Below are positions 8,442-8,535 of a stretch of DNA of 64,000 nucleotides, one piece after another (position 1 is the first letter of the stretch; each line of letters starts with the position of its first letter). The notes beneath the pieces were generated by a model. That model saw nothing but the letters and a program-made list of their open reading frames with translations. It was not told the DNA's origin and searched no databases. The position numbers were made by a program, and so were the translations under genes. The DNA is taken from contig CAVRXV010000001.1 in NCBI GenBank assembly GCA_963725255.1, positions 109,115 through 173,114 on the forward strand, given 5' to 3'. This DNA is from an uncultured Gammaproteobacteria bacterium (lineage in GTDB: Bacteria > Pseudomonadota > Gammaproteobacteria > JAIEPX01).

Positions 8442-8535
8442 GGAAAGGGGTCAAGTCTAAATTAATTGATTAATTAATGAATGTAGTATAGTCAAACCTA
8501 TAATTAATCAATTAATTTAGACTTGACCCCTTTCC
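8442..8535. repeat. GGGGTCA-type palindromic hairpin 'a' (perfect 35-bp arms 8442-8476 / 8501-8535, 24-nt loop)
   Basis: ggaaaggggtcaagtctaaattaattgattaatta ... taattaatcaattaatttagacttgacccctttcc. It lies 8 nt after the ftsB stop and 17 nt before the ispD ATG. Confidence 0.92.

Follow-up and report, generated by a model that had tools for sequence, protein, structure and literature searches.

What are four long, perfect or nearly perfect palindromes with the same ends doing in the spacers of one short piece of bacterial DNA? The question is raised by a 64-kb sample (64,000 nucleotides, hereafter the window) of an uncultured gammaproteobacterium (GenBank assembly GCA_963725255.1, contig CAVRXV010000001.1, positions 109,115 to 173,114 of the forward strand), in which hairpins a, b, c and d share termini that begin GGGGTCA and end TGACCCC. 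An original prediction, made from the letters of the window alone, took them for a repeat family rather than ordinary terminators, and the comparisons below support that distinction. We think it fairly probable that the hairpins are copies of a non-autonomous, trans-mobilised, REPIN-like palindromic mobile element that is kept symmetric at the DNA level. The window has a G+C content of about 39% and encodes ankyrin, Sel1 and large repeat proteins amid its housekeeping genes, and its nearest relatives are uncultured gammaproteobacterial metagenome-assembled genomes (MAGs) and metagenome contigs with 74–90% nucleotide identity; from this company we infer that the host is a Legionellales-like intracellular bacterium. 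Stretches from other genomes or metagenomes are labelled below by L followed by a number.

Four Hairpins in Intergenic Spacers

An inverted-repeat search of the whole window returned hairpins a–d, as expected, as its four best short-range palindromes (61–91 bp; coordinates in Table 1), and they exceed what randomised sequence produces: in 100 first-order Markov resamples of the window, hairpin arms never reached 20 nt, the longest being 19. Folded as RNA, a–d have energies of −54 to −61 kcal/mol (z about −12), and none of 200 shuffles was equally stable. The full palindrome at c spans 58759–58849, with 39-nt arms and one mismatch; read on the transcribed strand, the window's two arm mismatches are both A·C. 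Nine GGGGTCA heptamers occur in the window; eight are the ends of a–d, and the ninth (30069) belongs to a collapsed copy described below.

The gene context had been read correctly for a, c and d, which lie between a stop codon and the next ribosome-binding site (RBS), all on the minus strand: a lies 8 nt past the ftsB stop and 20 nt ahead of the ispD ATG, c lies 4 nt past the hflC stop and 33 nt ahead of the purA ATG, and d lies 1 nt past the stop of a yhhQ-like gene and 10 nt ahead of the miaA GTG. Hairpin b precedes the −35 box of tRNA-Leu(CAG) by 10 nt. The claim that none of the four is followed by a U-tract stands for a, b and d; it does not for c, where the transcribed strand continues UGGUUUUAAUUUUUU (58744–58758). 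No promoter or terminator consensus was found in or at hairpins a–d.

A Family with a Common End Box

Each arm of the family consists of a 12-mer, GGGGTCARRTCT, then two tandem lineage-specific 7–8-mers (Table 1), then a variable apex, the whole being inverted at both ends, and this architecture is common to all lineages. The tandem repeats can be seen in 49 distinct subfamilies as maxima of arm self-identity at shifts of 7 and 8 nt (0.39 and 0.36, against 0.29 ± 0.016 in shuffled arms). A scan of 596 Gb, one genome per species, with the pattern GGGGTCAARTC-N42-72-GAYTTGACCCC retrieved at least 131 two-ended matches in at least 118 genome stretches, across which the end GGGGTCARRTCT recurs; by our rough estimate about four would be expected by chance. 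Proteobacterial carriers include Duganella and Rugamonas (Oxalobacteraceae, with dozens of copies), Legionella, Coxiellaceae MAGs (Legionellales) and other gammaproteobacteria. Beyond these, copies occur in Aminicenantes, Acidimicrobiales, Thermoleophilia, several Desulfobacterota, Candidatus Obscuribacterium (Melainabacteria), Verrucomicrobiota, Planctomycetia, Omnitrophota and Elusimicrobia.

Since the scan itself selects the 11-mer and included no control motif, support independent of those eleven bases is needed, and it comes from several sides. Position 12, which the scan did not impose, is T in 91% of arms; the arms of most matches pair well past the 11 imposed bases and share the architecture above; many genomes hold several copies; the window's relatives contain end variants found by orthology rather than by the pattern (GGGGTCAGATCT, GGTGTCAGATCT and GGGGGCAGATCT); and only 2 matches occur among 2.9 million viral contigs. 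The only matches on plasmids, a chance 17-mer of a Duganella arm inside an IS110 transposase open reading frame (ORF) and an unrelated Borrelia match, were discarded. A likeness of the 12-mer to the tRNA T-arm (GGTTCRARTCC) was set aside as probably coincidental.

The family apparently has not been described so far. None of the hairpins matches a family in Rfam 15, where tRNA-Leu was the sole model above its gathering threshold, and permissive E-values brought up generic long-hairpin (miRNA precursor) models far below their own thresholds. Literature text searches for GGGGTCA, the 11-mers and the collapsed 13-mer (below) returned nothing or primer coincidences, and the motif is not contained in the REP, RepRanger and QMITE papers.

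The interiors had been thought specific to each copy. This is true within the 64-kb sample alone: interiors are specific to subfamilies and recur at other loci, and the four unlike interiors of the window are therefore a sampling effect. A related MAG (L112) has a c-like copy at another locus, on another contig; its arm repeats are likewise GACAAATAGACAAAT, its apex is closely similar (AACTAAGAT...), and the hflC-purA spacer of that MAG holds a remnant only (L112 versus L124). When metagenomes were scanned for a/b-type ends, one low-GC organism in one metagenome proved to have a single 74-nt subfamily in seven copies, each at a different locus, and these differ from each other through mirrored substitutions. 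Five identical copies lie within 8 kb of L102, a Coxiellaceae MAG.

L102 also provides the best case for sites of an integron-like or other site-specific recombinase, folded in the manner of attC, since it has seven copies in 8 kb between cassette-like genes (APH, four GNAT, NUDIX, a pentapeptide protein and PhzF). Sites of the attC kind have conserved ends and variable paired centres, and the family matches this general layout. It has no RYYYAAC/GTTRRRY boxes, however, its perfect arms leave no extrahelical bases, the window copies lie inside essential operons, and no integrase was found near them (the short ORFs of the window were not all scanned), so we regard such an origin as very improbable. 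The same L102 stretch (1–8000) has a 62-nt perfect direct repeat over two gene boundaries, which gives it an array-like look; no integron features were found there.

Gain, Loss and Replacement at Orthologous Spacers

The principal rival to a mobile element is that the hairpins are intercistronic RNA structures selected by the host and evolving where they stand, be they terminators, attenuators, RNase III sites or 3'-end protectors; the 12-bp base would then serve to bind a conserved host factor and be no signal for mobility. The best support for such structures is site a: the ftsB-ispD spacer holds a family hairpin in the window and in L128, L129–131 and L133, and none in L149 (60% IspD identity). 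The hairpins at this site are not one sequence. In L129 (82% nucleotide identity) the interior is that of the window and the right end has decayed to AGACATGCCACC; L128 (84.5%) has another interior and a partial extra left end, and L133 has 40-nt arms of yet another sequence. The 12-mer is decayed at this site in three of the four lineages, which fits a box required for transposition better than one that binds a host factor.

The spacer of b is empty in L119, L124 and L127. Hairpin c is absent from the nearest relative, L123 (89.5% nucleotide identity), which has a 36-nt unrelated segment exactly where the alignment breaks; in its hflC-purA spacer a short stem is kept together with the same U-tract, and the element is missing. 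Since this short stem has its homologue in the outer stem of c (GAGGATCTCAA/TTGAGATCTTC), c appears, from this alignment, to sit in the apex of an older terminator-like hairpin of hflC whose outer stem and U-tract predate it. A decayed copy with a different interior occupies site c in L119. At site d, L119, L121 and L127 have no hairpin, and the two genes abut or overlap there. Conversely, the spacers downstream of tRNA-Leu and upstream of hflK, which lack a copy in the window, are occupied in L124.

The ninth heptamer of the window marks a fifth site. The orthologous leuS/MobH-like spacer of L137 has a full hairpin, GGGGGCAGATCTCAG...CTGAGATCTGACCCC, and the window's 13-mer GGGGTCAGACCCC is therefore a central-deletion scar; other shortened or collapsed forms occur in L132, L149 and L077. 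Gain, loss and replacement at given spacers thus span about 10–25% nucleotide divergence, and hairpins that are absent, decayed or replaced in relatives are not evolving solely by compensatory change, the behaviour of ordinary terminators that would have spoken against a repeat family. The pattern is unlike that of a vertically conserved terminator. Close relatives without copies or with replaced ones, identical copies at many loci of one genome and 12-mers decayed at orthologous sites all stand against selection in place, and we judge that explanation unlikely; retention at ftsB-ispD is possibly co-option at one site.

Three further observations concern these spacers and the collapsed form. 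Within the apex of hairpin a, 12 nt (8475–8486, ATTAATGAATGT, plus strand) directly repeat the ispD RBS/start-codon region (8423–8434), 50 nt away, and the absence of this segment from the orthologous L129 hairpin suggests templated insertion into the apex. Between the convergent ends of purA and tRNA-Leu the window has a perfect 16-bp hairpin (57306–57339, TTTAGGGGAGAGAATC/GATTCTCTCCCCTAAA) without a U-tract on either strand, at the place where L124 (3710–3787) has a family hairpin of the GGTGTCAGATCT type. In L077 (2320–3460, Ectothiorhodospiraceae) the 13-mer, which lies within AAAAACGGGGTCAGACCCCATTT, is itself repeated several times in the genome; the collapsed form may therefore persist or spread alone.

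Arm Symmetry, Stutters and Decay

Whether the arms are matched by selection on RNA pairing or by a process acting on DNA was judged from an alignment of 49 distinct Duganella-type copies with 39 stem pairs. Both-sided changes occur in 18 of the 39 pairs, and there are 95 compensated Watson–Crick cells, against 36 ± 5 after shuffling (0 of 500 shuffles as high); in slid controls pairing falls to 24–39%. Among 194 single-sided departures, 39 are G·U and 155 are other mismatches, and transitions alone would give about one-third G·U by our estimate, so wobble pairs are not enriched. Selection for RNA pairing should enrich them, and their lack of enrichment points to symmetry kept at the DNA level; the A·C mismatches of the window, read in the mRNA sense, count against host-selected RNA hairpins likewise. 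Hairpin a is older than the split between the window and L129 and is still paired at all 35 positions, where about 6 hits would by our reckoning be expected in its 70 nt at about 9% divergence per lineage. The original prediction had offered a templated mechanism as one of two explanations of the perfect arms, and an arm-matching templated process does fit the excess of doubly changed Watson–Crick cells over both kinds of mismatch. As far as aligned copies can tell, we favour a DNA-level process in which one arm serves as template for the other, through hairpin-templated repair or template switching.

The symmetry does not end at the box. The palindrome usually reaches 1–3 nt beyond it and, in about one-fifth of copies, 5–11 nt into copy-specific flank; at least four of six flank positions are paired in 32 copies, against about 10 expected. 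Left flanks are A-rich and right flanks T-rich, a feature that host-selected hairpins would share. No target-site duplication was detected in 145 copies at lengths of 2–9 and offsets of 0–8, the counts being equal to those of randomly re-paired flanks.

The paired flanks and the lack of a target duplication bear on a further rival, that the hairpins are MITEs (miniature transposable elements with inverted repeats) of DDE transposons, that is, deletion derivatives of insertion sequences (for example Tn3-like ones, whose inverted repeats start GGGGTC) moved by cut-and-paste or replicatively. The ends of insertion sequences are usually bipartite in layout, and the conserved outer box with a subfamily-specific inner part has that look; the size of 60–95 bp and the multi-copy state also suit a MITE. 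Against this, a duplication of 2–9 bp is not seen at any offset, and the palindrome usually passes beyond the box into copy-specific flank. Moreover, neither a longer element with the same ends nor a transposase was found among the ORF clusters that recur across the 118 stretches or in the scanned ORFs of the window, and the inner TAAG of the Tn3 type is absent. We hold this origin to be quite improbable.

Partial end copies, 49 in all, lie beside about 160 full ones, against about 3 expected by chance, and these stutters occur in more than 15 lineages of different phyla. Of the 49, 29 stop 7–10 nt into the element (GGGGTCA(A)...), and most repeat 3–12 nt of the adjacent flank, which makes them tandem duplications of flank plus stem start. 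In the conventional reading of the stutters, the folded stem would stall replication 7–10 nt in, and back-slippage would then produce tandem [flank + GGGGTCAA] units.

A bolder alternative puts a site-specific nick in place of the stall. Here the 12-bp box would be the recognition and nicking site of a hairpin-specific enzyme common to many phyla, and the family a self-symmetrising class of palindrome that would differ both from REPIN/RAYT and from DDE-type MITEs. The enzyme would nick about 8 nt into the box (GGGGTCAA^), the 3' end would snap to the opposite arm and resynthesise its own arm, and, again through this enzyme, the element would enter the apexes of other hairpins without target duplication. 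Such a cycle could account for the long perfect arms, the copy-specific interiors, the palindromy that extends into flank and the recurrent [flank + GGGGTCAA] stutters; we nevertheless rate it as improbable. With either a stall or a nick, the DNA appears to fold in vivo.

A Proposed Mobile Palindrome Moved in Trans

To return to the REPIN-like element that we prefer, we infer its mobilising enzyme, its insertion chemistry and its role at the RNA level as follows. Mobilisation would occur in trans, by a putative enzyme whose substrate is the folded single strand and which requires the 12-bp box, with chemistry that may be RAYT/HUH-like or otherwise non-DDE. After insertion the arms would be kept identical, because the DNA folds in vivo, through intra-palindrome templated repair or template switching, and copies would die through one-sided mutation and through central deletion to GGGGTC(N)GACCCC. 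In the mRNAs of ftsB-ispD, hflC-purA and yhhQ-miaA each copy would form a duplex of 30–50 bp, which may stop 3' exonucleases or serve as a substrate for RNase III cleavage and so uncouple the flanking cistrons; this effect on the host would be a by-product, possibly co-opted at ftsB-ispD.

Several points weigh against this element. Neither a transposition event nor an autonomous partner or a mobilising gene was observed, and the neighbours of the copies are ordinary housekeeping genes; the GTAG/CGTC tags that define REP sequences are absent. The relatives are all at least 10% diverged and offer no clean pair of filled and empty sites, so that the insertion junction cannot be placed with single-base precision. 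The conservation of positions 1–11 is partly ascertainment, as the set was retrieved with the 11-mer itself. Finally, the hairpin kept at ftsB-ispD in four lineages could reflect host function rather than selfish persistence.

Location and Neighbouring Genes

The copies are extragenic, as REP-type elements are. Classifiable copies lie in convergent (34%), tandem (47%) and divergent (19%) spacers, against a background of 21%, 55% and 24%, and their distance to the nearest stop codon has a median of 25 nt and a mode of 0–10 nt. The enrichment in convergent spacers and the start of copies within 10 nt of stops agree with host-selected RNA hairpins, as do the very stable folds and the exact fit of three of the four window copies between a stop codon and the RBS that follows; the location of b in a divergent promoter region, the lack of a U-tract at a, b and d and of terminator or promoter consensus sequences, and the absence of an Rfam match speak against them.

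No gene is linked to the family as far as the stretches reach. All-against-all clusters of ORFs from the 118 stretches gave only generic families (GGDEF/EAL, LeuRS, ABC, TonB receptor, PBP and carbonic anhydrase), with no RAYT/IS200-type gene among the clusters that recur across these 8-kb pieces. Among the approximately 32 window ORFs annotated by Pfam scan or synteny there is no transposase, RAYT or integrase, about a dozen short ORFs being unscanned. No transposase flanked by two solitary ends turned up in these stretches, nor did a cognate insertion sequence on the plasmids searched.

Table 1. Positions and make-up of the family copies in the window, with the arm repeats of two other lineages.
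Feature	Coordinates	Structure	Tandem repeats of arm	Flanks
Hairpin a	8442..8535	core 8447-8530 (GGGGTCAAGTCT...AGACTTGACCCC); arms 35/35, apex 24 nt	ATTAATTG ATTAATTA	ftsB stop 8544-8546 (minus strand); ispD ATG 8419-8421
Hairpin b	57034..57128	arms 31/31, apex 33 nt; divergent spacer	ATTGCTAC ATTCTTAC	1697-aa repeat-protein gene start 56895 (minus strand); tRNA-Leu promoter 57138-57166, gene 57176-57262
Hairpin c, core	58770..58838	GGGGTCAAATCT, arm repeats, apex	GACAAATA GACAAATA	
Outer stem around c	58744..58849 (minus strand)	58759-58769 pairs with 58839-58849; U-rich tract 58744-58755, minus strand		
Hairpin d	63635..63697	variant end GGGGTCAGGCAT; arms 29/30, apex 3 nt	TGCATATT TGCATCTA	yhhQ-like stop 63699-63701; miaA RBS and GTG 63622-63624
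Collapsed fifth copy	30069..30081	GGGGTCAGACCCC; stem base alone remains		leuS / MobH-like gene spacer
Duganella			GACATTCG GACACGAG	
L022			TTGCCTT TTGCCTC	

Two features of the collapsed copy's surroundings deserve mention. A copy or scar adjoins leuS in at least four unrelated lineages (L045, L047, L066, L067 and the window at 30069; Acidimicrobiales, Oxalobacteraceae, Aminicenantes and the window organism), on a side of the gene that varies; this is commoner than we expected by chance, and we treat it as unexplained or as chance. Divergent from leuS, the window encodes (28535–29941, minus strand) a 468-aa stand-alone MobH/TraI_2-like relaxase-domain protein without a conjugative-element context (Pfam TraI_2 1e-13; NCBIfam MobH 85 bits, under the cut-off of 200). 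Its gene is a syntenic core gene of the clade, with relatives at 40–74% identity, and its upstream spacer holds the copy or scar. Judging by its domain, the protein could be a domesticated DNA-nicking enzyme; as the hairpin enzyme it was set aside and kept as a lead only, there being no evidence that ties the gene to the family in other phyla.

The window and its relatives contain other structures. Downstream of an rpoS-like gene lies a 166-nt imperfect palindrome (658–823) with 79-nt arms, 76% paired and nearly perfect in its inner 24–26 nt, which belongs to another sequence family (TATACTCCGTGCGG... ends). A second hairpin family in relatives (L119 1163–1284; L149 9263–9374 and the ispF-surE spacer of L149) is GC-rich, about 120 nt long and built on the opposite logic, its arms being variable and its 52-nt centre (ACGCCGTGAACCCATCCATGGGG...AACATCCCTGTTGCTCACG) conserved; no member was seen in the window. 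About 1 kb of the window between a TPR-methyltransferase gene and queC (43400–44400) has no ORF longer than 66 aa and resembles a decayed pseudogene region.

Significance and Comparison with Known Systems

REP, REPIN and MITE families usually do not extend beyond one genus or family. The present elements share a 12-bp box and a fixed architecture, without target-site duplications or REP tags, and occur in proteobacteria, actinobacteria, Aminicenantes, Desulfobacterota, Melainabacteria and further groups. Should they indeed be mobile, an enzyme of wide distribution that recognises the box remains to be found, and the element would offer a handle on it. The copies are in addition a natural data set on the perfect upkeep, extension, stutter and collapse of long DNA palindromes in vivo, and those inside the essential operons of the window (ftsB-ispDF, hflKC-purA and miaA-hfq-hflX) probably, by their position, shape mRNA processing there.

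Among known structures, an intrinsic terminator is a short GC-rich stem-loop followed directly by a U-tract; no terminator-like site lies at a–d, the U-tract of c belonging to the older outer stem. Sites of the attC kind have RYYYAAC...GTTRRRY boxes, pair imperfectly with extrahelical bases and stand in an array beside intI, whereas the present copies lack the boxes, have perfect arms and lie in housekeeping operons. Inverted repeats of the Tn3 family are about 38 bp long, start GGGG, end TAAG and are flanked by a 5-bp AT-rich target duplication; with their derivatives (IS101/TIME-type) the hairpins have the GGGG(TC) start alone in common, without an inner TAAG or a 5-bp duplication. In E. coli genetics, quasipalindrome correction by template switching is associated with replication, perfects palindromes and copies changes from arm to arm. 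It resembles what is seen here in the compensated differences that are Watson–Crick only and in the perfect arms of old copies, but it is a general mutational process and leaves the conserved 12-mer and the spread to new loci unexplained.

Mobile elements offer closer parallels. IS1397/ISKpn1 and members of the IS110/IS1111 family insert into palindromic repeats (PMC1525189), and a Coxiella IS1111 lies in QMITE2 (PMC5896051). A preference for the centres of existing hairpins would be common to them and to c and the roughly 20% of copies with palindromic flanks; they are, however, full insertion sequences with a transposase, and no such gene is associated here. Hairpin-forming MITEs are small inverted-repeat elements in or near transcription units, often at gene 3' ends (PMC5896051), and Neisseria Correia/nemis, ERIC and Coxiella QMITE1/2 elements resemble the family in this and in the long hairpins they form in mRNA. 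Those elements have target duplications and common interiors and are restricted to genera (MITEs are genus-specific in 97.4%; PMC11602168), whereas the present family has no target-site duplication, a variable apex and an end box found across phyla.

The original prediction had named REP/BIME-like elements, and that comparison holds in its REPIN form: REPINs have two invariant inverted end regions and a spacer defined by its length and hairpin capacity, in which compensatory changes are common (PMC3116915). The family shares with them the inverted conserved ends, the variable hairpin spacer, the compensatory changes, the extragenic location and the multi-copy state, and its lack of a target-site duplication is as expected of a REPIN-like element. 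A REP unit is a short imperfect palindrome tagged GTAG or CGTC (PMC3733652). Here the end box is GGGGTCARRTCT, with (A)AGGGGTCARRTCT ends and no GTAG/CGTC tag, and a local palindrome, GTCAAGTCTTGAC, occurs in some subfamilies only. The family further differs from REPINs in the tandem 7–8-mers of each arm, in its occurrence in many phyla and in that no RAYT gene was seen among the scanned ORFs of 64 kb of this genome or the recurrent ORF clusters in 8-kb pieces of others. Because it lacks the REP tag, the duplication of MITEs, the boxes of attC sites and the U-tract of terminators, we file it as a variant of the REP/REPIN kind, and the closest known system is the REPINs, REP doublets of Pseudomonas and enterobacteria that are mobilised by the HUH enzyme RAYT (TnpA-REP).

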